Virus record (IMG/VR): IMGVR_UViG_3300017917_000405
Coordinates: 30,729 to 94,728 of that record
Origin: a virus
Direction: 5' to 3' (one strand)
Length of the DNA stretch: 64,000 nucleotides
Notes under the pieces: model-generated
What the model was told of the DNA's origin: nothing
What the model saw: the letters and a program-made list of their open reading frames with translations, nothing else
Database searches by the model: none
Position numbers and translations under genes: made by a program
Part shown: positions 2,392-63,722 of the stretch, in pieces
How positions within the stretch are numbered: position 1 is the first letter of the stretch
Layout of the letters: every line of letters begins with the position of its first letter

Positions 2392-2951
2392 GCTTCCACC
2401 AACGACATTGATACTGACCAGAGATCATTATACTGACCGCGCTTAATTACTGAATATGAAAAGTCCTGAAAGAATACTGGAACAACTTCCGATGCTCTTG
2501 TGAGTTTCTGATATCTATCATTACCAGTTCCCATTGCGTGAACGCGGTCGTAACAAAGAATAAGGTAGAACTCTCCAGTATGATCTTCATACCATTCAAG
2601 CATGTCATCTGCTGCTAAGTAGTTTGGATTAACCTCTGTTGATCCGTTATAGTATCTTTCTGAAATAAAGTCTAGTGATGTTGTGTTTGGATTAATGGCC
2701 CTTGATGGAATGCTTGACCAATCTAGTGAATATGTATTCTTATCTGCAATATGATAAGAACGCATTCTTCCATTAATCATTCTTTGACGATACTCAATTC
2801 TTTCTGGACTAATCTCAATAGGCGATCTGTTGTCGTCGGTGAGATATTTAAAATCTCCTGTTAAGTCTGTACCACTCAAAACTGGTGGCTCTGCACAAAA
2901 TGCGGCTATTGCTGGACGAATATACTTCTTCTCTGCACCATAATTAGCCAT
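2388..2951 (-). CDS. Minor tail protein (distal tail-like)
   Basis: 187 aa, directly downstream of and coupled to the tape measure gene. Confidence 0.6.
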   Translation of the reverse strand: MANYGAEKKYIRPAIAAFCAEPPVLSGTDLTGDFKYLTDDNRSPIEISPERIEYRQRMINGRMRSYHIADKNTYSLDWSSIPSRAINPNTTSLDFISERYYNGSTEVNPNYLAADDMLEWYEDHTGEFYLILCYDRVHAMGTGNDRYQKLTRASEVVPVFFQDFSYSVIKRGQYNDLWSVSMSLVEA

Positions 2952-5900
2952 TATCTCTTCAAACTCCTAGCGTTTTCGCGTTGGCGAGCCTTTGCAAAAA
3001 CCTTATTAGCAATTTCGTCTGCGCCTGCATTTGTACCATTGACAGTAACATTAATATTATACACCGCGCCAGAGCCTGATCCAGAAACATTTGCGCTTGG
3101 AGCAGATGGAGCAGTAAATGCTGGTCCGATCTGACCGCCCATTGCAAATCCTGGCATTTTTCCACGCTGATTCATGTAGTCAAGTGTATTTGTTCCTAAT
3201 GACGCGGCGCTTGAAGCCTTAATGACATACTCGCCATTTGAAAGCATTGCTGGAATCGAATCTGAGGTTCCGCTACCGCGACCAGAAACCCTTCCTCCAA
3301 CTGCAAATCCGATAGAGAATGGACTTCCTTGCCCTGGCGCATCTCCTCCTTCGCCACCACCAGTAATTGGAAGATATGCTGGAATGTCTTTTCCTGCCAT
3401 GGGCCAATTTGGACGGCGTGCTCCTAGGTAGTACTTCTTATACCAACCGTCTGTCCAAGGGGAAACTTGAACGCCTCCACCAGTTGAGTGAAGAATTCTA
3501 TTGTTTCCATAGTAGAATCCAACGTGGTTAGGTTGTCCAGGTGAACGTGCTAGTCTTCCACTAAGGGTTGGATCTCCCCAGAAAAGAAGGTCTCCAACCT
3601 GTAGTTGTTGTCCAGGCTTAATAGTTCCAAATTTAGAGTCTGCCATTTGTGATGGAGAGTATGCTGCAGTTTTAATTCCAGCCTTTGAAAGTACATATGA
3701 TGTAAATCCAGAGCAGTCAAATCCTTTTAGTGGGTCGCTACTGCCTGCAATATATGGAAGTGGATCAAGTTTATCAAACATTGACTTAAGGAATGATGAA
3801 ATTGATGAGGCTCCTTCTTTACCAAGTATTGGGAAGTTTGCCTCTATTCCCTTTGCATCAATATTAGACCTATTGATTCTTCTTGCAAAGTTGCCTGCAG
3901 CAGACCCAAAGAATGAATAGAATGGGTTGCTAGTTGCAAGGCCACCGTTTGCGAATCTTGGCATTCTACTATTTGGAGTAATCATTCCACTTTGGAATGG
4001 TTGGAAATATTCTGGACCTCTTTCTCCAACTATATATCCTTGACCTCTTGCAACATATCCACCAGATGCTCTTGCTCCATAACGATTTGCAAGCATTCTT
4101 TCTTCTTCTTTGCTATAGGCATTCATTGTTTGTGCTGAAGAAATTCTTCTAAATTCACTTCGTAATACACGCTCTGCCACGTCTTTATCAATTCCTAGCG
4201 TGTCTGCCATTTGTTGGAATATCGCATCAAGGAGTTTTCCATATTCTGTTGTGAGAGAGTTTCCTACTGTTTGCATAGCAGACGCAAGTTGAGTCTTAAG
4301 ACTATCAAATCCTGGTCCAAGGGCATCTCCTGCTTTAATCAAAGCGTCTTGAATTGACTTAGAGAATTGTTTTTGTTCTTCTTCTGTAATCATGCCGTCT
4401 TGCATAATCTGATCAAAGAGTTTTTGTGGTCCAGAAAGAATGTCGTTAATTTGAGCCTTTCTTCTTTCTAGATTAAAGATTTGCTTTTCAATTGCTTTCT
4501 GTGATGCCTTAACGCCATCTTGAATTGACTGTGAAAGTTTATCATTTGCATCGATCTGATCCTGAATAGCCTTGACCCGAGCGTCTGACTCTTCTTGAAT
4601 TGCTTTCTTTCTATCTTCTAGAGCCTGAATTGCAAGGTCTTTATTTCTCTGCTCAGACTCTGCAGCCATTTGTGATTGAGCAGTAATGAATCCTGCAATA
4701 TCGCCTTGAGCAAGAGCGCTTAGCGCTCCAATTCCTCTTTGACGTTGCTGCTCATCAAAACTTGCCTGTTCTTTTGCCTTTTGTAATGATTCAATTTGTT
4801 TATCAATAAGTTTAGTGCGAGCGTCTGTATTCTCCTGAATATCTTTTTGCTGTTCTTGAAGGGCATCATTTTCTTTAGCAATAGCATCTGCAGATTCTTG
4901 TGCATTCTCTTGGACAGCCTTTGATTGCTCATTTAGTTTAGTAATTCTACTATCTATACCTTGAGTTACCATGCCCTGAACTTGCTGTAATTCTTGAAGT
5001 TCTGTTTTTGCAAGTTGTCCATAAGCATTTGCTAGATTAGATATTTCTAATGCAGCCATGTTTGAAGCAGTAGCATTCTTAATAATGAAAAGTTCTGTTT
5101 CACTTAATCCGTCTGCTGCCATTTTTGCAATTCCAGGAACGCTCATTAGAGTTGCATTAAAGACAGTCATTGCTTGTTCTGCTGTTTCAGACTTTGAAGC
5201 AAGGTTTGTAAATACTTGAATAGTTGCTGGATCTGCACCAATTGAAACTAGTTGTGCTTGCATCTCTGTTGATGCTGCCTGAAGTTTTCTGAATCGCTCA
5301 TCATTATCTGTAACAGCAACAATTGAATCTACTAGAGAATTCATTCCCTGAATAGCAAGAGATGGATCTGTGGCAAATGCACCCATAATATTTTTAATTG
5401 CTGGAGCAATAAGTTCTTCTGAATATGTTGCAGACTTTCTTAAAGAATTCATTTCTTGTGTCAGTCTTTCTGACTGATTTGCAAGATCGCCATATACTTT
5501 TACATCTTGTGCAAACTGATCTGTTGGAAGACCTTCTTTAACTGCTTTTCTATATTCTTCTGCAGCAGTTGTAAATCCAAAGATATCAAAGCCCTCTTTG
5601 CCCTTGATAATTTCCTGCATCTTGCTGCTAACTTGACTTTCTTGTTTTTGAAGTTCTCCAATAATATTTGGAATGTTAGCCTGCGCTTTAATATATTCTT
5701 CCTGGGCCTTCATTGCTTGTTCTGGAGTATTTATTCCAGTAAGTTCTGCCTTGATTGATAGAACAACCTCAGTTTTTTGTGCTTGACGAGCAATCTCTTC
5801 AACAATTGCCTTTGCCTGATCTGGTCCAAAACCTCTCATAATCATTGATGAATATGCAGCAACTAATTCATTTCCAGCGGTTTCTGTTCCCAGAACTTTA

Positions 5901-8900
5901 AGTTTTTCAATAAGCGTTTGATAGTCTTCTGTTACCTGAGACTTCATTTGATCGGATAGCGTTACAGCATTCTGAACCGAGGTATCTCCTCTTAAGGCAT
6001 CAAGCGATGCCTTTATTCTATCTACACCTTCTGCTGCACTCTTTGCCTCTATGCCAAATGATTCTGCAAGTTTTTGTGATGTTTCTAGAGCAGCCCTAGT
6101 TGAAGCCTTGGCATTTTCAACGGACTCTTGATATTTACCCCACGCAATAACTGCTGCTGTAATTCCTAGGCCTACTGCAATACCGACTGGACCGCCAAGC
6201 ATACTGATGAATCTTCCTCCAGTAAGCAATGCTGAAGATCCTACCCTTGCCCCAAGACCAATCCTAGATGCATTTGCAGCAGTTTTAGATGCTGCTAATG
6301 CTTGTGTTGGATTCATTATTCCATATTGTGAAGATCTTGCTGCTAGTCCTGCAGCAGCAGCCTTAGACTGACCACTAAGAAAAACGTTTCTTCCGCCTCT
6401 TTGAAGTGCATTTCCTGCTGCTTTAAGGCCAAGGAAGCCTCTTCCAGCGCCCCCAAGTCTCGGCATTCCACTCATGAGTTGCATTGCCATGCCAGCCATA
6501 GAAGCAGCGGCAGCGAGCATTGTAAGTTTATCTGTTGCCTCTGCCATTCCATCATTCATCTGACCAAGCATTGGAAGTGCCATCATAGCCATGAATCCAG
6601 CATTCATCATTGTTCCGCTACGGCGCATCATTCCTTGCTTTAGAGATGAAACTCTTCCATTTTTATCAACATATGCTCCATTGTCTGCAAGATATGCCTG
6701 AGGAATCATTGTCTCTGCTGTTCCTCGTCCGACTGCTATTGGAGTAGTTCCCTCTGGAATTCCTGCTAGTTTTTTTCTAGTCTTTCGATCTAAAACATCC
6801 ATTCCAGTAATACTTCCAGTTGTTGCATGAAGAGGAACCGCTGGATTTCTTACTCCTGCACTTGAAGATGTTTCTTTTGAAACTCCATATTCAATAAGTG
6901 GCCTGTCACCGACTATTGTTGTCCTTGCTCTTTCATATAGAGCATCCCTTATTGCCCCTGGATCTTTTGCAGCATATATTCTTTGAAAAATATCTTCTGC
7001 AGCAGCGCGAGCATACTTTTCTTTATCATATACTGATCCAAATAGAGAATTTGGTAATAATGTAAGTTCTGTTAGTGCTGCTCTTTGTGCAAGCCTTCTT
7101 TGATATGTAGCATTTCTTCCTTCTTTATTTGGTGTTTGTTGTACAACAGCCTTAATTTCTCTTTTAAGATATTCTGCTGCTGGACCTGGCTTTACTTTCT
7201 TTTCTGCGGCATCATCTAGCATTTTTCTATATGCGCCTGTTAGTTCATCAAAGGTTACTGGTCCTTTTATTCCAAGTGTTTTATACATTTGGTTAAGATC
7301 TTGTGACTCTGCCTGTGAAATTCCAGCAAATGGTTTTCTTTCTCCTAATTTAAAGTCTGGTCCAGCAAAGTGGGAGCGTGCCCAATAATCTTCTTTTGCA
7401 CCAGGAATTGTGCGTGGATCAAAAAATAGATCTTTAGAAAATCCAAGTCTATTTGGATCAAATGGCGTAACAAAATCTCCATCTACATATCCACGAACAC
7501 TACCACTATTTATTGATCGTAGAAGAGGCGCATATTTCTTTGCTTGTTCTTTCCTAACAACAAACTCGCCTGGTTCAAGTAGTGCTGGAACAATATCTCC
7601 GCCACCGTATCCAGAAATTCCACCGCCGTTAGCCTTTTTAATTCTTGGAACTGGTGGAATTGTTGCGCCCTTTGTAATAAAGTTTGGATTTTGTGCAGCA
7701 ATTTGACCAAGCCTTCTTTGATATTGAGCAAGAAGGGTATTAAGTTCTGACAATGAAGTCTTTTGTCTATCAAAACTATTTGATAGAATATCTGTTGCTT
7801 GAGCAGCAGCAACCTGCTCTGCGTCAAGTAGTTCAAATTTTTCTGTTGGTAGGCCGAGTATTTTTCTTGAAAGGTTAACTATTCCCATGACACCCTTTTG
7901 AGTATATCCAAGGAAGTTACCCATAATACCAGCCATCATAATAAGTGGACCAGCGACTGCTACTAGCGTCCCTATAAGTTTAATTCCGCTTTTAAGTCCT
8001 TCTGGCATATTATTAAAAGCATCTGTAATTGTAGTTATTGCATCTGCGCCTTTTTGAAGAACTGGAATAAGCATATTAGTTAGAATTTCTCCAACTGGAA
8101 GCAAGGCAACCTTAATGCTTTCCATTGCTCTTTGCCATCTCATTGATGCAGACTCTGTAAGAGTCTTAATTTCGCTATTTGCAATGTCAGCAAGGTCTTT
8201 TGACGACTTGCCCATGAGTTCAAAAACTTTTTCTGTTTGAGATCCAGACTTTCCAATATTATCGAATAGGGCAGAGATTCTTGCAAACTGGTATTTGCCA
8301 AAAATTTCTTCAATAATTTGTGCTCTGCCAAATGAATCAATCTTTTCTAAAGCACCTTGTAGGCTTTGTAGCGTTGGCATAAGTTGTCCACGATTAGCAG
8401 CAACAATTCCTTCTAGGTCTACTCCAAACTTCTTGGCAACATCAGAGGCCTTCTGTGTTGGGTTAATCATTGATGCCAGACCAGACTTAATTGCGTTTGC
8501 TGCTTCTGCTGCAGGAATACCACCCTCGCGCATAGCGGTAAGCATTGCTGCAAGATCTTTAATATCTCCGCCAAGTGCGCGTACTACTGGTCCAGCCTTT
8601 GGAATTGCTGTTGTAAGGTCATCAAGGCTGGTTGTAGTTTGGTTTTCTACTGCGTTAAGGAAGTTAATTGAGTCAGCGAGTTCTTCTGTGTTTAGTTTAA
8701 ATGCTGATTGAATAGATAGTGTTGCTTGCATTGCCTGTTGGCGATCAACTTCACCAAGAACTGCAAGCCTTGTTGTCTGTGATACGGAATCAATTAATTT
8801 CTGACCCTCTAGGCCAGTTGCAGCCAAATCTGCTGCAAGTGCTGCCGTTTCTTTAGCAGCAATTCCGTAGTTCTGTGCAAAAGCAGTTGCAACTTCTTCT

Positions 8901-9613
8901 ACCTGCTGTCTAATCTTTGCAGTAGCCTGTGCATTTGATGTAACAAGATCTGATCCATAAACCTTTTGAAGCCTAGTAAGTTCTTTATCAACATCGCGGA
9001 AGGCCTTTGATGCAGTTGCAGCAAAAATTGTAAGTGGAACAGTAAGACCAACAGTTAACTGACGACCAGCCCATTGAGTATTTTTACCCCAGTCAATAAG
9101 TTTCTGTGCTCCACCCTGCACAAGAGCATTAAAAATTGACCATTGCTTTGAGGCCAATTGCATTTTTGTTGTAACGTTATCATCAATCCACTTTGGAGTG
9201 ATAACCATTCCCTGACCTCTGCCACCCTGACCACCAAGACCGATAGTAGTAGACTGCATAAGTTTAACTTGCTCATAAGCCAGTCTCTTAGCCAAAGATG
9301 CTTGTTTGGTATATGCTCTTCCTGCTTCTCTGTAATATTCTCTAAGAGTAAGTTTATTTCTAGCGAGTGCTTTACCAAATTGATCTGTTGCAGTAGCAAG
9401 TTCTACAAACGATGTTCTATATCCACCAATTGTTCCTAAAGATGCAACAAAATCTTTTGTTGCCGCCATTTTTGCACGTTGAGCAGCAACGCTCATGCTA
9501 TTAAATGCAGCAGCAGTTAGATTAACATTTTTTGATAATACTCTTAGTGATGAGTTAGCATTAGTAAAGTCTGCATCTAGCGAAAGCCTAGTCTTAATAT
9601 TTGCGTCTGCCAT
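2951..9613 (-). CDS. Tape measure protein with C-terminal NlpC/P60 peptidoglycan peptidase domain
   Basis: 2220 aa, Ala/Gln-rich helical core. NlpC/P60 motifs GFDCSGFTSYV...GDLLFW...NHVGFYYGNNRILHS. Follows the tail chaperones. Confidence 0.95.
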   Translation of the reverse strand: MADANIKTRLSLDADFTNANSSLRVLSKNVNLTAAAFNSMSVAAQRAKMAATKDFVASLGTIGGYRTSFVELATATDQFGKALARNKLTLREYYREAGRAYTKQASLAKRLAYEQVKLMQSTTIGLGGQGGRGQGMVITPKWIDDNVTTKMQLASKQWSIFNALVQGGAQKLIDWGKNTQWAGRQLTVGLTVPLTIFAATASKAFRDVDKELTRLQKVYGSDLVTSNAQATAKIRQQVEEVATAFAQNYGIAAKETAALAADLAATGLEGQKLIDSVSQTTRLAVLGEVDRQQAMQATLSIQSAFKLNTEELADSINFLNAVENQTTTSLDDLTTAIPKAGPVVRALGGDIKDLAAMLTAMREGGIPAAEAANAIKSGLASMINPTQKASDVAKKFGVDLEGIVAANRGQLMPTLQSLQGALEKIDSFGRAQIIEEIFGKYQFARISALFDNIGKSGSQTEKVFELMGKSSKDLADIANSEIKTLTESASMRWQRAMESIKVALLPVGEILTNMLIPVLQKGADAITTITDAFNNMPEGLKSGIKLIGTLVAVAGPLIMMAGIMGNFLGYTQKGVMGIVNLSRKILGLPTEKFELLDAEQVAAAQATDILSNSFDRQKTSLSELNTLLAQYQRRLGQIAAQNPNFITKGATIPPVPRIKKANGGGISGYGGGDIVPALLEPGEFVVRKEQAKKYAPLLRSINSGSVRGYVDGDFVTPFDPNRLGFSKDLFFDPRTIPGAKEDYWARSHFAGPDFKLGERKPFAGISQAESQDLNQMYKTLGIKGPVTFDELTGAYRKMLDDAAEKKVKPGPAAEYLKREIKAVVQQTPNKEGRNATYQRRLAQRAALTELTLLPNSLFGSVYDKEKYARAAAEDIFQRIYAAKDPGAIRDALYERARTTIVGDRPLIEYGVSKETSSSAGVRNPAVPLHATTGSITGMDVLDRKTRKKLAGIPEGTTPIAVGRGTAETMIPQAYLADNGAYVDKNGRVSSLKQGMMRRSGTMMNAGFMAMMALPMLGQMNDGMAEATDKLTMLAAAASMAGMAMQLMSGMPRLGGAGRGFLGLKAAGNALQRGGRNVFLSGQSKAAAAGLAARSSQYGIMNPTQALAASKTAANASRIGLGARVGSSALLTGGRFISMLGGPVGIAVGLGITAAVIAWGKYQESVENAKASTRAALETSQKLAESFGIEAKSAAEGVDRIKASLDALRGDTSVQNAVTLSDQMKSQVTEDYQTLIEKLKVLGTETAGNELVAAYSSMIMRGFGPDQAKAIVEEIARQAQKTEVVLSIKAELTGINTPEQAMKAQEEYIKAQANIPNIIGELQKQESQVSSKMQEIIKGKEGFDIFGFTTAAEEYRKAVKEGLPTDQFAQDVKVYGDLANQSERLTQEMNSLRKSATYSEELIAPAIKNIMGAFATDPSLAIQGMNSLVDSIVAVTDNDERFRKLQAASTEMQAQLVSIGADPATIQVFTNLASKSETAEQAMTVFNATLMSVPGIAKMAADGLSETELFIIKNATASNMAALEISNLANAYGQLAKTELQELQQVQGMVTQGIDSRITKLNEQSKAVQENAQESADAIAKENDALQEQQKDIQENTDARTKLIDKQIESLQKAKEQASFDEQQRQRGIGALSALAQGDIAGFITAQSQMAAESEQRNKDLAIQALEDRKKAIQEESDARVKAIQDQIDANDKLSQSIQDGVKASQKAIEKQIFNLERRKAQINDILSGPQKLFDQIMQDGMITEEEQKQFSKSIQDALIKAGDALGPGFDSLKTQLASAMQTVGNSLTTEYGKLLDAIFQQMADTLGIDKDVAERVLRSEFRRISSAQTMNAYSKEEERMLANRYGARASGGYVARGQGYIVGERGPEYFQPFQSGMITPNSRMPRFANGGLATSNPFYSFFGSAAGNFARRINRSNIDAKGIEANFPILGKEGASSISSFLKSMFDKLDPLPYIAGSSDPLKGFDCSGFTSYVLSKAGIKTAAYSPSQMADSKFGTIKPGQQLQVGDLLFWGDPTLSGRLARSPGQPNHVGFYYGNNRILHSTGGGVQVSPWTDGWYKKYYLGARRPNWPMAGKDIPAYLPITGGGEGGDAPGQGSPFSIGFAVGGRVSGRGSGTSDSIPAMLSNGEYVIKASSAASLGTNTLDYMNQRGKMPGFAMGGQIGPAFTAPSAPSANVSGSGSGAVYNINVTVNGTNAGADEIANKVFAKARQRENARSLKR

Positions 9614-27891: not shown

Positions 27892-28317
27892 CTAGATATC
27901 CTCGCCGCAGGTGTGGCAGTAGATCGCTGCCACTTGCTGGTCCCCGTTGTGATCTTCCTCCATGATCGCGCTGGTGAAATGATCTAGGTGTAGTGCCTTC
28001 CGTAGCCCGCGTGCCCATTCTGCGAACTCCATACCCTTGCGCTGCGCGTCGTGGGTCCATGCACCGTGGCAGGTGGCGCATAGCACCTGGCACTTAGACA
28101 GTTCCGCAAGCAGAGTGCGCGTGGAGTATCGGCGCACCATGTTCGCAGGGTGAACTACCTCGCCAGAGGCGTTGCGGTATTTGTTCGATGGATCTAGGTG
28201 GTCGAGCACTAGGCCCGCCGCGCTCGTGCGATATCCGCAGACTGTGCAACCGTGGGACAGTTTGTGCGCGTCAACTATGGCGCGATTGCGCTCCTGTGCC
28301 TGTCGTGAGATAGCCAT
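27892..28317 (-). CDS. HNH endonuclease
   Basis: CTVCG...LDHLDP...KCQVLCATCH. Likely start MAISRQ at 28317 (TGATG coupling). Confidence 0.8.
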   Translation of the reverse strand: MAISRQAQERNRAIVDAHKLSHGCTVCGYRTSAAGLVLDHLDPSNKYRNASGEVVHPANMVRRYSTRTLLAELSKCQVLCATCHGAWTHDAQRKGMEFAEWARGLRKALHLDHFTSAIMEEDHNGDQQVAAIYCHTCGEDI

Positions 28318-29059: not shown

Positions 29060-30837
29060 ATGCCAAAGGAATTCAAGATCGCCATCGTTCCCGCCGTTGC
29101 ATTGTTCGCGCTTTGCACCTACATCTGTATGTCAGCCCTGCGTGCTATCTTTGCTTTCTAGGAGGAAATCATGATGCACATCTACTACTTAGGCCGCTAC
29201 AAGAACAGCGAGCAAGACTACGACCGCGCTAGTGCGTGGGTAGCCAATGAGGTTGCGTCTAGTGGCGCGTCCTTTGCAGACTTTGAGATTGTGGAGGCAT
29301 AATGAAACTCACTCATCGTGGCGAGGTTGCGATTGTCCTTGCTTTCATCGCTGGTTTTGCCTTTCTCTGTCATGTCTTTGGCGAGGGGGGATTCTAAATG
29401 ATGTACCATATCGTTCACCCATTAGCACATGGCGTTAGTGTCATCACTAAGAAAGAAGTGCCCATTGCTATGGCTACCGCAGATACTTGCGAGATTGCAT
29501 TCTTTGACCAAGATGGTGAATGGGTTACTGATATCGTTTCAGAGTTTGTAGAGTATGCAGATAGCGTAGAAGGTGGCACGCTTGTCTATGGCTATGTGCC
29601 AAATGAAGATGTCGAAAACTTTTTAGAAAAATATTCGTAATAGACTTGACAAACCCATTGATTTGGGTCCGGCCCCGAAATGTCCTATTTACGAAGTATG
29701 TACTTTTTCACAGAAAATATAACAGGTTTATAACAATATTGTTTATCATTTCGTTATAAATCAATGTCCGTTTTGTCATATCTACTCGTCAGTAAATGTC
29801 AGACCCCTCTGATAGTTTGTTTCTAGTAGAAAGGATTCACTTATGTTCATGTACATCATCTCCCTTGATTGTTCCCCCTGGAATGTCCCCGTCGTCTGCG
29901 ATGAAATGTCAGACCCCTCGGATAGACTTCACCCATCAATGATGAATCACATTGTCGATATCGAAACGATTGGATTGGTAGCATGAGTACCCCCACCCTT
30001 CACCTTGCTGTCTGCCCGCGCTGTGCAGAAAACTTCCTCTCAACCTTTGAGGCAATCGACGATTGGGAAGATGTTTGCGAGAAGTGCTACGAGGACTTCC
30101 TGCTTGACCTCTACCCCGACCTTGACTGGCAAGCCGAATACCACCACCTTTAGGAGAAACATGACTTACACATTCACTACCCCATTCCTCCGCATTGATT
30201 GGCAGGAGGGTTCTCATACTGCTAACGTCACCACCGTTCGTGGAGATATGGACGTTTTCACGTTCGCATGGCACAAAGACTATCCCGATGTTGTGGACTT
30301 CACCGAAGCCCTTGCATCATGGGTCAACTACTCGCTCACCGTGGAGGACGCTAATGTCTAACTATCTTGACTACCTTCCCGAAGATGGCAACTTCACCGA
30401 AGATGAACTTTGGGACGCGATTGCAGAATCATTAGACGTTGATCCAGATGAGATCAGCGATGGAGATTTGGTGGACTACCTGTGAGCGATTACTTTATCT
30501 ATCACCCAGGATCAGGAACAATGATCGCATTGTCAGATACTGTCTATGTCATTGACGCAACCTCTTTGACTGAACTAGAACTAGATGAATCAGAGGCAGG
30601 AGTGTTAGATATCTATCGCGTGATGGATATTGGTGTTCGCCTTGATAATGAATATTGGGACGAAGTACAAGATGCAATGGAGGCAATGTAATGAAAACTA
30701 ATAGAGAACTCAATCCAACAGAGTTTGAGATTGCATTCCAACTAAAGAATGCGTTAAACGAGTTGAGAAACTATCAAGATATTCCCGCTGCTATTGAGCA
30801 TATCGAATCAGCACTTACAAATCTGTATGAGTGGTGA
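29060..30837 (+). CDS. Run of tiny, mostly acidic early-type ORFs (e.g. 29060-29161, 29171-29302, 29398-29640, ~30161-30361, ~30354-30485, 30482-30691, ~30691-30837)
   Basis: Strong RBSs, coupled start/stop codons, D/E-rich; functions not recognisable. Confidence 0.6.
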
Positions 30838-41106: not shown

Positions 41107-41179
41107 CTGGAACGGCAGGATTCGAACCTGCGACTTAGGGATTAACAATCCCCCACTCTGCCAACTGAGTTACGTTCCA
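41107..41179 (-). tRNA. tRNA-Asn(GTT)
   Basis: Canonical cloverleaf TGGAACG...TTGTTAA...GGTTCGAATCC...CGTTCCA. Confidence 0.92.
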
Positions 41180-41315
41180 TTGTTACATTTGCAAAGGGTA
41201 TCTGGATGATAGTTTCTGAACAATCCATCAAGATGTTCTCCACAACCAGACCAAGTATATTTATTGCAAGTCTGACATACGACTACGCTACACATAGCAT
41301 AATTGTATATCATAG

Positions 41316-41386
41316 AGCCACTAGAAGGTATCGCGCCCTCTTCACCGCTTTACAAGAACGGTGCATTACTTTTATGCTATAGTGGC
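41316..41386 (-). tRNA. tRNA-Thr(TGT), atypical D and T loops
   Basis: Acceptor GCCACTA/TAGTGGC; anticodon loop CTTGTAA; T loop CGCGATA. Confidence 0.75.
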
Positions 41387-41814
41387 AAATCTAGTCTCCA
41401 ACTGCCAAACTCTTTTGCTGTTCTTCTTCTGTGGCAGTTAACACACACAGTATCACATTTATCTAATTCTTCAATTAATTCTTCTATTGGAACTTTTATT
41501 CTTCTCAAACTTGAAATAGTATATTTTTTTTCTTTACTATTTCTATGATCAAGTTCCATTACTACTGGATCTTTTTCACCGCAATCCATACACCCAGTAA
41601 CAATTTTTTGTGCAATATATGCGTCTACCTTTGCTGTCCATATATTATCGTTATTTTTTACATATACGTCTTTATGCTTATTATATTTTTCTGGATTATT
41701 TTTATAATATTGCCTCATATATGCCGCGTAGCATGGTTTACACCTTGACCTACTTCCAGAAACTAAATTTTCTTTCGTAAGTTTTTGATTACACGATATA
41801 CAGTAATTTCTCAT
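41377..41814 (-). CDS. HNH endonuclease
   Basis: CISC..CKPC..CMDCG...LDH...KCDTVCVNCHRRRT. Leaderless start 41814; stop lies inside tRNA-Thr. Confidence 0.88.
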   Translation of the reverse strand: MRNYCISCNQKLTKENLVSGSRSRCKPCYAAYMRQYYKNNPEKYNKHKDVYVKNNDNIWTAKVDAYIAQKIVTGCMDCGEKDPVVMELDHRNSKEKKYTISSLRRIKVPIEELIEELDKCDTVCVNCHRRRTAKEFGSWRLDLPL

Positions 41815-41839
41815 GTTATAAGTATAACATAACTTATAG

Positions 41840-41913
41840 TACGCAGCCAGGGAATTGAACCCTGCTCTAAGTTGCTTATAAGACGACTTCTGACCACCAG
41901 CCAGCCGCTGCGC
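41840..41913 (-). tRNA. tRNA-Ile(TAT)
   Basis: Acceptor GCGCAGC/GCTGCGT; anticodon loop CTTATAA; T arm CAGGG-TTCAATT-CCCTG. Confidence 0.8.
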
Positions 41914-41953
41914 CAAGCAGTTTTATATGCTTATTATATGTCCTACAACTAGG

Positions 41954-42208
41954 CTATGTCAAGCCCAACTTCTGATAGAAATCATTCTTAGGAAATGCAC
42001 CAACAATATTTGCTAGAACCTCTCCATTATTTTCAAGAATGAATGTTGGTACGCCAGAGACACCGCTGACCTTTGCCATATCTGGATTCTGGTCAATGTC
42101 GATCATTTCATATTCAATTTCTGGGTGCTCTTCAATTACCTGCTTGATGATAGGCTTCATCATCTTGCATGGCTGACACCATTCTGCTGTGAAATGCTTT
42201 AATTTCAT
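41954..42208 (-). CDS. Thioredoxin
   Basis: FTAEWCQPCKMMKP...GVPTF. Confidence 0.9.
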   Translation of the reverse strand: MKLKHFTAEWCQPCKMMKPIIKQVIEEHPEIEYEMIDIDQNPDMAKVSGVSGVPTFILENNGEVLANIVGAFPKNDFYQKLGLT

Positions 42209-42232
42209 ATTTCTCCTTTATTAGTATTGCCG

Positions 42233-42305
42233 CGCCCCTGGTAGGAATCGAACCTACGACTAATGGATTAGAAGTCCACTACTCTATCCGCTGAGTTACA
42301 GAGGC
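42233..42305 (-). tRNA. tRNA-Arg(TCT)
   Basis: Canonical cloverleaf; anticodon loop CTTCTAA; GGTTCGATTCC. Confidence 0.93.
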
Positions 42306-42333
42306 AAGCGACAAAACATCAACTTCCCAAGCG

Positions 42334-42404
42334 AGCGACAGACGGGTAACGCTCCCGCGTATCCAGTTTGGAAGACTGGCGCATTGCTTTTATGCTACTG
42401 TCGC
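42334..42404 (-). tRNA. tRNA-Gly(TCC), atypical D and T loops
   Basis: Acceptor GCGACAG/CTGTCGC; anticodon loop CTTCCAA; T loop AGCGTTA. Confidence 0.75.
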
Positions 42405-42913
42405 GTATTTTTTAAATAGTTTGCAAGATTTATTGCACTATTATAATTATCATCTAAAAGACCAATAGCGCGATTGCATTTATCACACAAAAGACCTCTA
42501 ACACATTTACCACAAGATCCCTTTTCTTTATTACAACAAGAATGGTCATGATCTACAGATAAATTTTTCCCACTATTTTCTTTTTTTGTTCTTCCACAAA
42601 TATAACATCCACCACTATTTTTGTCAAGCATTTTTGTATATTCTTCAATACTAATGCCATAGTGTTGCTGTAAATATAACTCTCTTTTAACAATAGATTG
42701 ACAATCAAGACACCTTGATTTATGCGTCCATTTTTGTATATCTTCAATACTAAATATTTTTTTACAGCGAGAACACATTTTTTGTTTATCATTATTTATT
42801 TGCCAACCAAGATTTCTTCTTTTTGGAGGAAGTTTTCCTCTTTTAACACAATTGCTGCACATCCCATGAGACTTTGCACCTTCTCTAATGCATCCATTAA
42901 TACATTTGGTCAT
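42395..42913 (-). CDS. Endonuclease VII-family (His-Me) homing endonuclease
   Basis: YGISIEEY...CYICG...LSVDHDH...VRGLLCDKCNRAIG; stop lies inside tRNA-Gly. Confidence 0.9.
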   Translation of the reverse strand: MTKCINGCIREGAKSHGMCSNCVKRGKLPPKRRNLGWQINNDKQKMCSRCKKIFSIEDIQKWTHKSRCLDCQSIVKRELYLQQHYGISIEEYTKMLDKNSGGCYICGRTKKENSGKNLSVDHDHSCCNKEKGSCGKCVRGLLCDKCNRAIGLLDDNYNSAINLANYLKNTRQ

Positions 42914-42934
42914 ATTTAATTGTACCACAAATAA

Positions 42935-43438
42935 TTAAATATATGCCCAGTCTGGGTCTGGAGTATAGTCCTTTGCGTGTCCAGCAACAGGCCAAAAGTA
43001 ATTACATTTTTCACAACATGATACTTTTTGTTTTGTTCCTTCATACCAGAAGTCAGCGTAGAACCACATATCTTTAAGATACAGGTTTTGACGATGTGAG
43101 TTATGTACCCTCATGTCGCCCAACCATGGCGGCATTACGATACCATTGCCACGAAACCAGTTAGCATCATGCATCTGCTCAATTGCAGTCCAGTTCTTTT
43201 CTACACTTATGCCACGAGCAATGCATTCATTTTTAATAGCAGTAAGGTATAGATACAAAGCATTATCATAGTTGCGCCACATCTTTACTGCTGGATGGTT
43301 TACCCAAGCACCAGATGTTCTATTCGACGAAATGATCTGATAAATTTGCCTACCTTCAAGTAGTTGTTTGTTTAACCTGCGGTTATCAAGTGATTGTGCA
43401 GATTTATTAAAGTTTTTGAACGGAACAAAGGTTTGCAT
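42935..43438 (-). CDS. Pyrimidine-dimer DNA glycosylase (DenV/Pyr_excise-like)
   Basis: MQTFVP...LDNRRLNKQLLEGRQI...HPAVKMWR...PPWLG..HNSHRQNL. Confidence 0.8.
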   Translation of the reverse strand: MQTFVPFKNFNKSAQSLDNRRLNKQLLEGRQIYQIISSNRTSGAWVNHPAVKMWRNYDNALYLYLTAIKNECIARGISVEKNWTAIEQMHDANWFRGNGIVMPPWLGDMRVHNSHRQNLYLKDMWFYADFWYEGTKQKVSCCEKCNYFWPVAGHAKDYTPDPDWAYI

Positions 43439-61145: not shown

Positions 61146-63722
61146 TTATACCCCTAGCCACCATGAATTTGAAAGAACGGTTTGTGTTTGAACAGATCCT
61201 CCACCACCACCGCCTGAGCCAATCTCATTATATGTGGTCCCATCATTTGTATATTCCCATGCATCTGTTGCTTCATTCCATCTAATTGCAACATTGTCAT
61301 CTGTGCCACGTTCTACTTCTAAAACAGCATTTGATGATGCTGCTCCAGATGTAAGCGAATTAAAAGTAATAGTTGTTCCAGTAGATTCAATTTTTCCAAC
61401 AACAAATGTGTCATAGATTGCCTGAGCAAAATTAATAACTGTAGTTGGTTCATCCTCAACACTTGAGAAGAGTTTCCACTTTCCGTCTGTTGCATCACGA
61501 ACAAGGCCAGAATGTTGATATGCTCCATTATTAAAACTTGCAACAAATCCAAGGTCGACGGAGTTTGCGCTATTGCCTTCTCCAATATAAATAAGTGGGT
61601 CACTAATTACAAGTTCGTTTGCATAAGTAATGTTTCCAAGCACATCTAGATCATTGGTTACTGTAAGATTATTAGCAATTGTTACATCATTTGTTAGGCC
61701 AAATGAAAATGTATTTAGTGAATCGTCATGGCTAAATGTAATATTAGACTGTGTTCCTGCGGCAATTGCGGCTGCAATAGCATCTCTAGCATCCTCGTCT
61801 GAATATCCTGGGCTTGCTGTAAATGCAAGCAGGCCAGTACTATCATTATAGTCAACGCTGATGTTGGTATGAGTTGCACCAGTAATCATGCCTGCCGCAA
61901 CATCTTGAATCTCTTCTGTTAAACTTGTGATATCGGATACCGCATGGTTGTGAGAAGATGCCGCTTTTCCATCTAATTGAGACTGAATTCCAGATGTTAC
62001 TCCATTTACATATCCTATTTCTGTAGACGAGACATCACCAATTGACGTATTACTTGGAAGATTTACAGTAGTATCAAACTGTACTGTTACTGCACCAGTA
62101 GATGATGGAGTAACAACAATCTCATTAGATGTTCCAGAGAGCGATCTTACACCATCGTTTGTTACATTAATCTTATTTGTTGCGTCATTATATTCTATAG
62201 TTACGCCATTATGAGTACCATTTTGAAATAATTGATATGCTGCATCTTGTGCTCTTTCATCTGTAAAGTATAGGTTTGTAGACCCCTCTGTAACAGCATC
62301 TGTATCAAGGGTTACTTCTACTGGCCTACCGCTATCGCCTTTCCATACCTTCCCAGTTGATAGGTTTGGAAGGGTGTCAATTGATGACCAAAAGGTATTT
62401 CCAAAAACAAAAATAGATCCATTGTCTACAGACAATACTTTTGCAAAAGGTTGAATGATATTTGTTCCAGTAGGCCTTACTGTAGTAAACCCTCCACCAG
62501 ATGCAACATATAGTAAATCTCCAGCAGTATATCCAGTTAAGGTTAGTCCTCGTATTGGACCAAATGTAATAACCCTTACTGTTGCGTCACTAGCGACTGA
62601 CGCTGTAGTAATTCCATATGCTGGCATAAGAGCAGCAGACGATGCATCTGCTTTAGTAAAGTTTAGTTGCTCATACCCCAATGTTTCTGTGTTAATGACA
62701 ATTGGGGTAAAGGCATTAATAGTTGATCCGCTTGCATTTCTTGCAGTTACTGAATATGCACTAGCATTTTTCCATAAACTTGTTGCCTCATCATATAAAA
62801 TAGTTTGATCTGTTTTTGCAGATGAGATTAGTATGTTGTGTAGTTCATTAAGTTCGTATCCGTTTTGAATCTTAACAAAGATTTCTCCAGATGAAGCATG
62901 ACTACGAATACAATATCCAATAAATACTCCGTGGTTTGGAGGTGTTGGCATAGTTGTTGTAAACTGTCCAGCGGTGGCAGATAGCCAAAGAGCAGCGCCC
63001 TCAGTATATGCAAGAGTGTCTATTCCTCTTAAAACACCAAATGTAAGAACAAATCCTTCTGCCCCATCTGCAATTGATTCTAGAACAACTCCAAATGTTT
63101 TTGAAGATGTAGATTCAGAAGATGCTGATGCTTTGGCTAGTGCTGGTCTTTGTCCCTGTGCTCCAGTTACATAAACAACCGTACCTTTCGATAGTGCTGC
63201 TCCAGTACCGTTATAACAAAGAGCAACCTCTTGCTGACCAATTTTAAGGTTGATATTGCCACCCTTTAATCCAAGGTCAAGGGTTCCATCTCCGTCGTTC
63301 CAGACAAGTTCTCCAACTCCTCCAGCATTGTCTGGAGTAAGATCAAATCCAAGATTATCAATGTTTGTGATATCGTAACTAGCCGCATCAAGGTTGCCTC
63401 CCAAAGTTGGGCTAGTATCTTCTTCAACATTGAATATTCCTCCAGAAATAACTCCTGTTACTTCTACCCAGAATGATCCGTCGTAAATATAAAATGCACC
63501 AGTTGTATTGTCAAACCATGCATTTCCAACTACTGGATTTGCTGGCGCGGTATCTCCAACTGTGATGGTTCCAGAACCTACTTCTACCCACGCAGAACCG
63601 TCATAAAACTTTAAAACGTCGCGGGTGGTATTGTAATAAAAATCACCCTGCGCTCCAGAGGCAGGGTCATCTGATAAATTAAGCAGGTTTATAGGTTGTA
63701 AAAATTTTCTGGAGGCCACCAT
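61146..63722 (-). CDS. Long tail fibre/structural protein
   Basis: 858 aa with repeated fibre motifs (APANPVVGNAWFD, TEGSTNLYFTDERAQDA). Confidence 0.8.
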   Translation of the reverse strand: MVASRKFLQPINLLNLSDDPASGAQGDFYYNTTRDVLKFYDGSAWVEVGSGTITVGDTAPANPVVGNAWFDNTTGAFYIYDGSFWVEVTGVISGGIFNVEEDTSPTLGGNLDAASYDITNIDNLGFDLTPDNAGGVGELVWNDGDGTLDLGLKGGNINLKIGQQEVALCYNGTGAALSKGTVVYVTGAQGQRPALAKASASSESTSSKTFGVVLESIADGAEGFVLTFGVLRGIDTLAYTEGAALWLSATAGQFTTTMPTPPNHGVFIGYCIRSHASSGEIFVKIQNGYELNELHNILISSAKTDQTILYDEATSLWKNASAYSVTARNASGSTINAFTPIVINTETLGYEQLNFTKADASSAALMPAYGITTASVASDATVRVITFGPIRGLTLTGYTAGDLLYVASGGGFTTVRPTGTNIIQPFAKVLSVDNGSIFVFGNTFWSSIDTLPNLSTGKVWKGDSGRPVEVTLDTDAVTEGSTNLYFTDERAQDAAYQLFQNGTHNGVTIEYNDATNKINVTNDGVRSLSGTSNEIVVTPSSTGAVTVQFDTTVNLPSNTSIGDVSSTEIGYVNGVTSGIQSQLDGKAASSHNHAVSDITSLTEEIQDVAAGMITGATHTNISVDYNDSTGLLAFTASPGYSDEDARDAIAAAIAAGTQSNITFSHDDSLNTFSFGLTNDVTIANNLTVTNDLDVLGNITYANELVISDPLIYIGEGNSANSVDLGFVASFNNGAYQHSGLVRDATDGKWKLFSSVEDEPTTVINFAQAIYDTFVVGKIESTGTTITFNSLTSGAASSNAVLEVERGTDDNVAIRWNEATDAWEYTNDGTTYNEIGSGGGGGGSVQTQTVLSNSWWLGV

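Follow-up and report, generated by a model that had tools for sequence, protein, structure and literature searches.

In phage T4, the GIY-YIG homing endonuclease SegB is encoded inside the transfer RNA (tRNA) gene cluster (Brok-Volchanskaya et al. 2008, PMC2330249). The segB gene is transcribed within the tRNA precursor, and its product recognizes the T-psi-C stem-loop motif GGTTCRANTCC of tRNA genes, cuts within these genes and drives the preferred inheritance of the tRNA region (PMC2330249). Maturation of tRNA-Arg was proposed to cut the segB mRNA just behind its last sense codon, so that the stop codon is lost, which would limit the enzyme (PMC2330249). Phage T5, as cited in the same paper, carries HNH-family nuclease genes in its tRNA cluster, and it was suggested that processing of the primary transcript lowers their expression. 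In another system, a tRNA operon that moves horizontally has an HNH gene linked to it and under shared regulation, and passages of that paper suggest that the nuclease aids the spread of the array (2021, PMC8421152). The locus described here lies in a 64,000-nucleotide (nt) stretch of viral DNA (the window; positions 30,729 to 94,728 of record IMGVR_UViG_3300017917_000405). Two nuclease open reading frames (ORFs), one of the EndoVII family and one of the HNH family, each end inside a structurally atypical tRNA, tRNA-Gly(UCC) and tRNA-Thr(UGU) respectively. The best explanation, to which we give a probability of about 0.72, is that these are two free-standing homing-endonuclease genes, each residing in a mobile cassette with the tRNA behind it.

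Nuclease genes and atypical tRNAs

Both ORFs encode nuclease domains of known homing families (HNH and EndoVII, His-Me finger). The EndoVII ORF matches PF02945 (E 1e-18) and the PHROG endonuclease VII family (E 4e-25). The HNH ORF matches PHROG 2255, HNH endonuclease (E 3e-26), and its translation shows the CxxC...DH...CxxCH motifs; the Pfam HNH match reaches just E 3e-3, which is under the cut-off. The composition of the two genes is unlike that of the residents, with a G+C content of 0.31 as against 0.39 in core genes (0.27-0.31 in the EndoVII ORF versus about 0.40 in its neighbours; about 0.29-0.31 in the HNH ORF). Among the loci fetched for comparison, designated by L numbers, the nearest relative of the HNH protein is that of Rhodococcus phage Francesca (37% identity), whose gene also stops at tRNA positions 8-10.

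The EndoVII ORF ends ACG CGA CAG TAG. The TAG (42395-42397) is positions 8-10 of tRNA-Gly, and the final codons CGA CAG together with the stop occupy positions 2-10. The HNH ORF ends TTG CCA CTA TAG with the TAG at 41377-41379, and here CCA CUA and the stop occupy positions 2-10 of tRNA-Thr. With the tRNAs placed by both ARAGORN and Rfam, the overlap is exactly 10 nt in each pair, as reported in the initial annotation. In the EndoVII genes of the window, L012 and L028, a conserved YLK/N motif closes the nuclease domain and the tRNA starts within 0-2 nt of it, though the tRNAs differ. The L012 (2977-3445) and L028 (2818-3310) homologues have their stop TAG at positions 13-15 of a tRNA-Ile(UAU) with an unusually long D loop.

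The two tRNAs share the D arm UAGCAUAAAAG(C/U)AAUGC, with D loops AAAAGCA in tRNA-Gly and AAAAGUA in tRNA-Thr. Their T loops, AGCGUUA and CGCGAUA, replace UUCRANY, and neither tRNA carries the canonical signatures G18-G19 and T54-psi55-C56. In tRNA-Gly the variable loop has 4 nt, CCA is not encoded, and the cloverleaf is the minimum-free-energy fold. Both tRNAs exceed the gathering score of 29 for Rfam RF00005 (Table 1). The observation that this pair combines a shared D arm with non-canonical T loops was confirmed; tRNA-Arg and tRNA-Asn of the same cluster are canonical.

These tRNAs belong to a larger class, referred to here as rewired-elbow tRNAs. The 17-mer of the D arm occurs 84 times in IMG/VR, and a covariance model, R1, was built from 19 sequences that match the D arm. 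In these 19 members the cloverleaf is 99.2% paired, and the covariation score is 0.84 as compared with 0.18 for shuffles; all four stems are retained in the class and three covary heavily. R1 finds at least 53 class members in 81 IMG/VR pattern matches, and both window tRNAs fall within the class definition (81-82 bits). An ARAGORN census of atypical tRNAs, which picks up 19 of the 81, was dropped as an undercount and replaced by the covariance model. Standard tRNA finders thus miss many rewired-elbow tRNAs, and phage tRNA inventories are undercounted. The class is characterized by U8-A9, a D stem GCAU/AUGC, a 7-nt D loop AAAAGNA with a single G, a 4-nt variable loop and a T loop N-G-C-R-N-U-A; positions 54 and 58 apparently vary together. 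Its anticodons include Gly, Thr, Gln, His, Phe, Asn, Cys and, as read from the anticodon loops, several more, and many members encode CCA. Examples from L040-L119 are found at L117:7765-10172, L107:6479-7029 and L108:8100-8170; close alleles of tRNA-Thr that have no upstream nuclease ORF occur in L089, L108 and L084. Of the 80 pattern matches listed for bacterial genomes, 3 belong to the class, each on a contig of between 0.8 and 6.3 kb, and the rest are mostly chance matches. Because just these three appear among the listed bacterial matches, the rewired elbow is, judged by its distribution, a phage-specific tRNA design.

A different reading is that the atypical structures are tRNA-like 3' elements of the nuclease mRNAs, acting as processing or stability signals, and not working tRNAs. 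In favour of it, they are without the G18-G19 and T54-psi55 signatures and an encoded CCA, and ARAGORN misses about two thirds of the class. The paired and covarying stems, the span of at least seven amino-acid specificities, the CCA encoded by many members and the location of most members in tRNA arrays without a nuclease make this reading highly improbable. Furthermore, the two genes are the genome's sole Gly(UCC) and Thr(UGU) genes, and the core genes favour GGA and ACA, the codons that match the anticodons UCC and UGU. For these reasons, tRNA-Gly and tRNA-Thr are most likely working tRNAs.

Apparent exchange of nuclease gene and tRNA among relatives

Relatives were collected with the adjoining denV-like glycosylase gene as anchor. 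Eighty related loci were kept from 597 matches, a sample that is blind to nucleases and to tRNA type. The interval from denV to tRNA-Gly is empty in L124, contains an EndoVII gene and a 274-aa (amino acid) ORF in L126, and contains an HNH gene in L146. In L138 the order is a 64-aa ORF, HNH and tRNA-Gly; in L132 the 64-aa ORF is followed by tRNA-Gly. The nuclease is, therefore, sporadically present or absent at one locus among syntenic relatives.

The type of tRNA-Gly(UCC) follows the nuclease. It is canonical in all denV-anchored relatives without an abutting nuclease (L124, L127, L128, L130-L135, L137, L139, L140 and L143), and also in L126, where the EndoVII gene lies 870 nt away. It is rewired in the three phages where a nuclease abuts: the window, with the EndoVII stop at positions 8-10; L146, with an HNH stop at 5-7 followed by a second TAG; and L138, with an HNH stop at 13-15 of a tRNA-Gly missed by ARAGORN. 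When the 80 denV-anchored loci and the window are counted together, including the window tRNA-Thr, a nuclease ORF ends inside 4 of the 5 rewired tRNAs, whereas a nuclease gene abuts 5 of some 115 canonical tRNAs (p = 7e-5).

The extent of the exchanged unit is seen in L132 and L138, which are closely related and show 83% identity in the left flank, with the -35 box kept. Then the -10 box, the HNH gene and the whole tRNA-Gly of L138 substitute for the -10 box and canonical tRNA-Gly of L132. The two tRNA-Gly genes are 53% identical, and identity returns in the 21-nt spacer right behind the tRNA. In this comparison of end states, as distinct from an observed conversion, the nuclease gene and the tRNA allele change together, and the 3' end of the tRNA marks the limit of the tract. 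On this comparison the nuclease gene lies behind the tRNA operon promoter and ahead of the tRNA, and the swapped unit takes in the entire tRNA. This swap between conserved flanks supports the earlier proposal that nuclease and tRNA form one unit. The spacer, CGCTTGGGAAGTTGATGTTTT, is identical in six phages (window, L127, L130, L132, L133 and L138) despite strongly differing tRNA-Gly and tRNA-Arg alleles, and may be a processing signal or a recombination border. The tRNA-Gly genes of the window and L146 are 90% identical, though the adjoining nucleases are unrelated (EndoVII versus HNH), and by eye their stem differences look compensatory.

A layout in which the nuclease splits a tRNA and supplies a substitute 5' end was rejected. 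Just 21 nt separate the denV stop from the EndoVII start, the sequence ahead of the two nuclease genes shows no evident stranded 5' fragment, and the shared D arm is found with two nuclease families and with many nuclease-free tRNAs.

Exchange of the whole tRNA raises the question of what the rewired allele contributes. It might be an immunity allele, the nucleases targeting the D-arm/T-arm DNA of the canonical tRNA-Gly and tRNA-Thr genes of rivals. The near restriction of the lineage's atypical alleles to sites beside a nuclease is consistent with this. In L138 the tract has its border precisely at the 3' end of the tRNA, and in the window and L146 the adjoining tRNA-Arg or spacer likewise resembles the resident type, a pattern compatible with cleavage within the tRNA gene. 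The rewired T arm (GGGAGCGTTACCC) is without the SegB motif. However, the identical association is expected if a tRNA of the donor lineage simply hitch-hikes with the nuclease. Canonical tRNAs are also abutted by nucleases (Francesca tRNA-Phe, Streptomyces phage Jada tRNA-Met, L126 tRNA-Pro, L012 and L028 tRNA-Ile), and the canonical Arg, Asn and Ile genes of the cluster would be exposed if a generic T-arm motif were the target. On balance, an immunity function is possible but rather unlikely. The initial annotation had offered homing modules with a resistant allele as one interpretation; the carriage of a foreign, atypical tRNA allele is borne out, whereas the atypical design proves to be widespread and most of its members stand without a nuclease.

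By analogy with SegB, nucleases recognizing the D-arm/T-arm DNA of tRNA genes might even be the selective force behind the rewired-elbow design, a speculation that we hold to be less probable still. If true, the rebuilt elbow (G55 for U55, with a matching D-loop change) would no longer carry the nuclease target, and nuclease plus immune tRNA would spread as a cassette replacing the canonical tRNA genes of rival phages. Decay of the nuclease would then strand the odd tRNA, which would explain why most class members stand alone.

Overlap, predicted transcription and the probable fate of the stop codon

The initial annotation attached special meaning to the stop lying at exactly positions 8-10. 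A stop triplet occupies these positions in 54% of 482 phage tRNAs (TAG in 42%), and for an ORF that reads into one of these tRNAs in the matching frame, the stop falls there 52% of the time. Positions 8-10 are the modal first stop for ORFs entering a tRNA, and the commonest first stop of the next frame is at position 13; in a survey of 387 tRNAs, 7 ORFs of at least 60 aa end at position 8 and 4 end at position 13. The stop positions seen in other phages (5, 8, 13 and 19) match what the tRNA sequence offers, with no preferred site, and for both window ORFs to stop at 8-10 merely requires the same frame twice, about 1 in 9. On these frame statistics the exact position was rejected as a meaningful site.

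The overlap itself is another matter. Among the denV-anchored relatives, 10 of 48 ORF-to-tRNA junctions overlap, and nuclease ORFs overlap more often (5/9) than other ORFs (5/39; Fisher p = 0.012). In this count, as in that of the rewired tRNAs above, some of the phages are related, so that the cases are not wholly independent. The excess over chance lies in the running of nuclease ORFs into tRNAs as such, not in the exact position. The simplest alternative is that nothing specific is involved and the overlaps are frame coincidences in an ordinarily compacted genome. Half of the ten overlapping junctions indeed involve non-nuclease ORFs, a stop triplet at 8-10 is common in tRNAs at large, and the orphan 47-aa ORF of the window behaves likewise: it begins 2 nt past tRNA-Thr and its stop TAA is U8-A9-A10 of tRNA-Asn. 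(This ORF has no homologue by local tblastn or in a 5.8-billion protein collection, and was not counted as a gene since these searches were empty.) Compaction as the whole explanation is nevertheless quite unlikely, given the enrichment of nuclease ORFs among the overlaps, the position of the Jada HNH gene as the only overlapping coding sequence, and the atypical tRNA alleles that co-occur and swap together with nuclease genes.

The layout recurs elsewhere. A survey for nuclease ORFs with a stop at tRNA positions 8-10, suggested at the outset, turned it up in IMG/VR contigs and cultured actinophages (L068, L059, L107 and Francesca). Other stops lie at 5-7 in L146, at 13-15 in L012, L028, L122 and L138, and at 19-21 in L126. 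In Francesca (PP978770), the HNH gene 152 shares 10 nt with tRNA-Phe and has its TAG at 8-10; 5 nt ahead of its start codon lies an extended -10 box. In Jada (MZ820094), the HNH gene 120 has an annotated 13-nt overlap with tRNA-Met and is, in the annotation table, the sole coding sequence to overlap a tRNA 5' end at about 30 such junctions. Jada also has homing nuclease genes between duplicate isoacceptors (tRNA-Met/HNH/tRNA-Met; tRNA-Glu/LAGLIDADG/tRNA-Glu/tRNA-Glu), which looks as if nuclease-plus-tRNA cassettes had inserted next to a resident copy. The overlap is not required, since close homologues in L004, L126, L013 and L030 have their own stop well upstream of any tRNA.

A leaderless transcript is predicted for the EndoVII gene from the extended -10 box that precedes its ATG. 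The box and its spacing are kept before 61%-identical homologues in L004 and L005. The geometry of the HNH box is repeated before the homologous HNH genes of L090, L005, L138, L143 and Francesca, and TGnTAnAAT stands 5-7 nt ahead of the start codon in nearly all homologous nuclease genes examined. Neither nuclease ORF is preceded by a Shine-Dalgarno sequence, which is present before the neighbouring thioredoxin and denV genes. Genome-wide, TGnTAYAAT-N5-7-ATG occurs at 9 sites versus 0.9 expected (10-fold), for example at window positions 63722, 59568, 58841, 56345, 55978 and 49361 on the minus strand. A looser form precedes 18 ORFs of at least 40 aa, including long ORFs in the structural-gene region. 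Because of this genome-wide enrichment, leaderless starts would appear to be the general promoter style of the phage, and the idea that they are a special feature of nuclease genes was rejected. The leaderless promoters of the initial annotation thus gain support from the consensus and from recurrence before homologues, but are not specific to nucleases. Leaderless mRNAs are frequent in Actinobacteria, which fits the style of this phage.

Sigma-70-like sites are not enriched in the region overall (12 versus 9.6 expected). The perfect consensus at 41933..41962 is the likely promoter of a unit composed of tRNA-Ile, HNH, tRNA-Thr, the 47-aa ORF and tRNA-Asn, and the window tRNAs may be reached by further transcripts from sites of this kind. 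A scan of the short stretches between ORFs and tRNAs listed no minus-strand terminator-like site, and none was listed among the genes of the unit from tRNA-Ile to tRNA-Asn.

The proposed cassette would have three parts: an extended -10 promoter that sets the transcription start at the ATG; a minimal nuclease ORF without a stop codon of its own; and a complete tRNA, from the 5' end of which the ORF takes its last two codons and its stop. As the near-invariant triplet U8-A9-G10 is the first stop for an ORF entering the tRNA in that frame, the ORF terminates there. The tRNAs would have arrived with the nuclease genes, displacing the canonical isoacceptor genes seen in nuclease-free relatives, and the cassette would spread by double-strand-break repair, carrying the adjacent tRNA much as T4 SegB carries the T4 tRNA region. 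Transcription from the ATG into the tRNA would make the nuclease mRNA the 5' leader of the pre-tRNA. RNase P cleaves at tRNA position 1. In both window genes the stop lies 3' of this site, a SegB-type geometry, and since the stop is inside the tRNA, the RNase P cut would take off two sense codons and the stop. A ribosome close behind the polymerase could finish before the tRNA is complete or folded, while later ribosomes would meet a non-stop end; full translation would be possible only before the tRNA of that transcript matures. The layout thus probably keeps nuclease output low, an effect that may be a by-product rather than a purpose.

Whether this limitation is selected is a separate question. 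The overlap might be a dedicated control, as the initial annotation chiefly proposed, in which RNase P generates a non-stop mRNA that is cleared by transfer-messenger RNA (tmRNA) or other rescue, limiting a toxic nuclease. The geometry makes loss of the stop unavoidable after an RNase P cut, nuclease ORFs are over-represented among the overlaps, and in 16 of 22 nuclease-tRNA junctions the stop lies at or past position -2, so that RNase P would destroy or truncate it. Control of this kind has been proposed for T4 segB and the T5 nucleases, and tight down-regulation is established for several T4-type homing endonucleases (PMC2330249). The cultured relative Jada encodes its own tmRNA (MZ820094 62000-100000; tag ANSNFALAA), but this phage has no tmRNA gene. 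The stop positions, moreover, track the tRNA sequence in each frame, as expected without selection of a site, and the close homologues in L004, L126, L013 and L030 work with an upstream stop of their own. We therefore view selected control as a tentative proposal, and a doubtful one.

Several observations weigh against the cassette as the explanation of the locus. In other lineages, the majority of rewired-elbow tRNAs are members of tRNA arrays and have no adjoining nuclease, and about half of the nuclease-abutted tRNAs elsewhere are canonical. Within the lineage there is one exception to the association, a rewired tRNA-Glu(UUC) in L146 (6473-6544) without an adjoining nuclease gene; its T loop is GGCAGUA, it lies directly behind a canonical tRNA-Thr and it is missed by ARAGORN. 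The 61%-identical EndoVII homologues in L004 and L126 share the left junction with the window gene but not the tRNA fusion, and for this reason the window fusion could be a secondary deletion and not the original cassette. The tRNAs could also have a transcript of their own, from the sigma-70-like site that lies within the EndoVII ORF. Finally, non-nuclease ORFs also overlap tRNA 5' ends (L130, L138/L142, L157 and L160), so general compaction is a contributor to the ORF/tRNA overlaps.

Gene neighbourhood and comparison with known systems

The IMG/VR source record has a length of 94.7 kb and direct terminal repeats. The encoded portal protein shares 54% identity with the portals of BillNye and other Streptomyces phages, relatives of Jada (Stanwilliamsviridae), and on this basis the phage is an uncultured relative of the large, Stanwilliamsviridae-related actinophages. 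Its host is probably of low G+C content. A DNA similarity search of the region against cultured phages gave tRNA-sized matches only, and no close cultured relative. On the minus strand, from 43438 to 41107, the order is the denV-like glycosylase, EndoVII ORF, tRNA-Gly(UCC), tRNA-Arg(UCU), thioredoxin gene, tRNA-Ile(UAU) candidate, HNH ORF, tRNA-Thr(UGU), 47-aa ORF and tRNA-Asn(GUU) (Table 1).

Table 1. Features of the tRNA and nuclease region, in window coordinates
Feature	Position	Strand	Evidence or remark
denV-like pyrimidine-dimer glycosylase gene	42935..43438	-	PF03013, E 9e-17; conserved left anchor for collecting relatives
Extended -10 box TGGTACAAT	42919..42927	-	5 nt before EndoVII ATG; function predicted from consensus
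EndoVII-family (His-Me finger) probable free-standing homing endonuclease gene, 172 aa	42395..42913	-	PF02945, PHROG
Sigma-70-like site TTGACA-17-TATATT with TG	42599..42627	-	Inside EndoVII ORF; consensus scan 11/12
tRNA-Gly(UCC), rewired-elbow class	42334..42404	-	ARAGORN; Rfam RF00005 53.7 bits; model R1 82.2 bits
21-nt spacer CGCTTGGGAAGTTGATGTTTT	42313..42333	-	Directly 3' of tRNA-Gly; right-hand border of swapped cassette
tRNA-Arg(UCU), canonical	42233..42305	-	Outside any cassette; Rfam 69.3 bits; T loop UUCGAUU
Sigma-70 consensus TTGACA-18-TATAAT, perfect	41933..41962	-	Upstream of tRNA-Ile candidate; 12/12 matches
tRNA-Ile(UAU) candidate	41839..41913	-	ARAGORN only; status uncertain
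Extended -10 box TGTTATACT	41821..41829	-	6 nt before HNH ATG; function predicted from consensus
HNH (His-Me finger) probable free-standing homing endonuclease gene, 145 aa	41377..41814	-	PHROG 2255
tRNA-Thr(UGU), rewired-elbow class	41316..41386	-	ARAGORN; Rfam RF00005 51.0 bits; R1 81.4 bits
Orphan Cys-rich 47-aa ORF	41170..41313	-	Coding status uncertain
tRNA-Asn(GUU), canonical	41107..41179	-	Rfam 69.5 bits

The tRNA-Ile(UAU) candidate combines a canonical T arm with G8, a D stem of 6 bp and a D loop of 3 nt. It is unconfirmed, with no Rfam match at E<=1, no relatives in the fetched loci and a fold z-score of -1.6, and could represent either a decayed gene or an unusual decoder of AUA. Elsewhere in the window, a single 2220-aa ORF spans 2951-9613 on the minus strand, and a 235-aa open frame with no tRNA nearby gives a second, weak HNH-like match (E 5e-4; about 28054-28269, minus strand).

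Searches of open-access text found no literature on nuclease ORFs that end inside tRNAs or on rewired-elbow phage tRNAs. The Francesca and Jada overlaps are known as record annotations, and no paper discussing them was found. Their HNH proteins belong to the same family as the window HNH (31-37% identity). Francesca shares the 10-nt overlap and the TAG at 8-10, and the Jada-type Streptomyces phages are structural relatives of the window phage. Unlike tRNA-Gly and tRNA-Thr of the window, the Francesca and Jada tRNAs have canonical T loops.

Mitochondrial tRNA punctuation offers a parallel at the level of processing, in that tRNA excision sets the 3' end of the upstream mRNA and whether a stop codon exists. 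In mitochondria, excision followed by polyadenylation creates the stop, whereas here excision would destroy it. The locus provides a natural series in which one site is empty or filled by either of two unrelated nuclease families. With this series, cutting of tRNA genes, immunity conferred by the deviant elbow, and limitation of expression through a stop inside the tRNA all become testable.

The nearest counterpart is T4 SegB, likewise a free-standing homing nuclease gene among tRNA genes. SegB is a GIY-YIG enzyme and the window nucleases are of the His-Me finger type. In the GenBank record of T4, segB terminates 5 nt ahead of tRNA-Arg; the stops inside the tRNA in the window represent a more extreme form. 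The T4 tRNAs are canonical, and no swap of a whole tRNA allele with an atypical tRNA is described for T4. Phage T5, as far as it is described in the citing paper, is similar in having HNH-family nuclease genes embedded in its tRNA cluster. The horizontally moving operon has one nuclease beside a whole array, in bacterial genomes and plasmids, and the passages describing it mention no ORF/tRNA overlap (PMC8421152). Homing nucleases in phage tRNA clusters, and a curb on them through tRNA maturation, are already known, and a bare overlap is no discovery. What appears to be new is a cassette in which a nuclease is coupled to a tRNA of deviant structure and which takes the place of the canonical gene.

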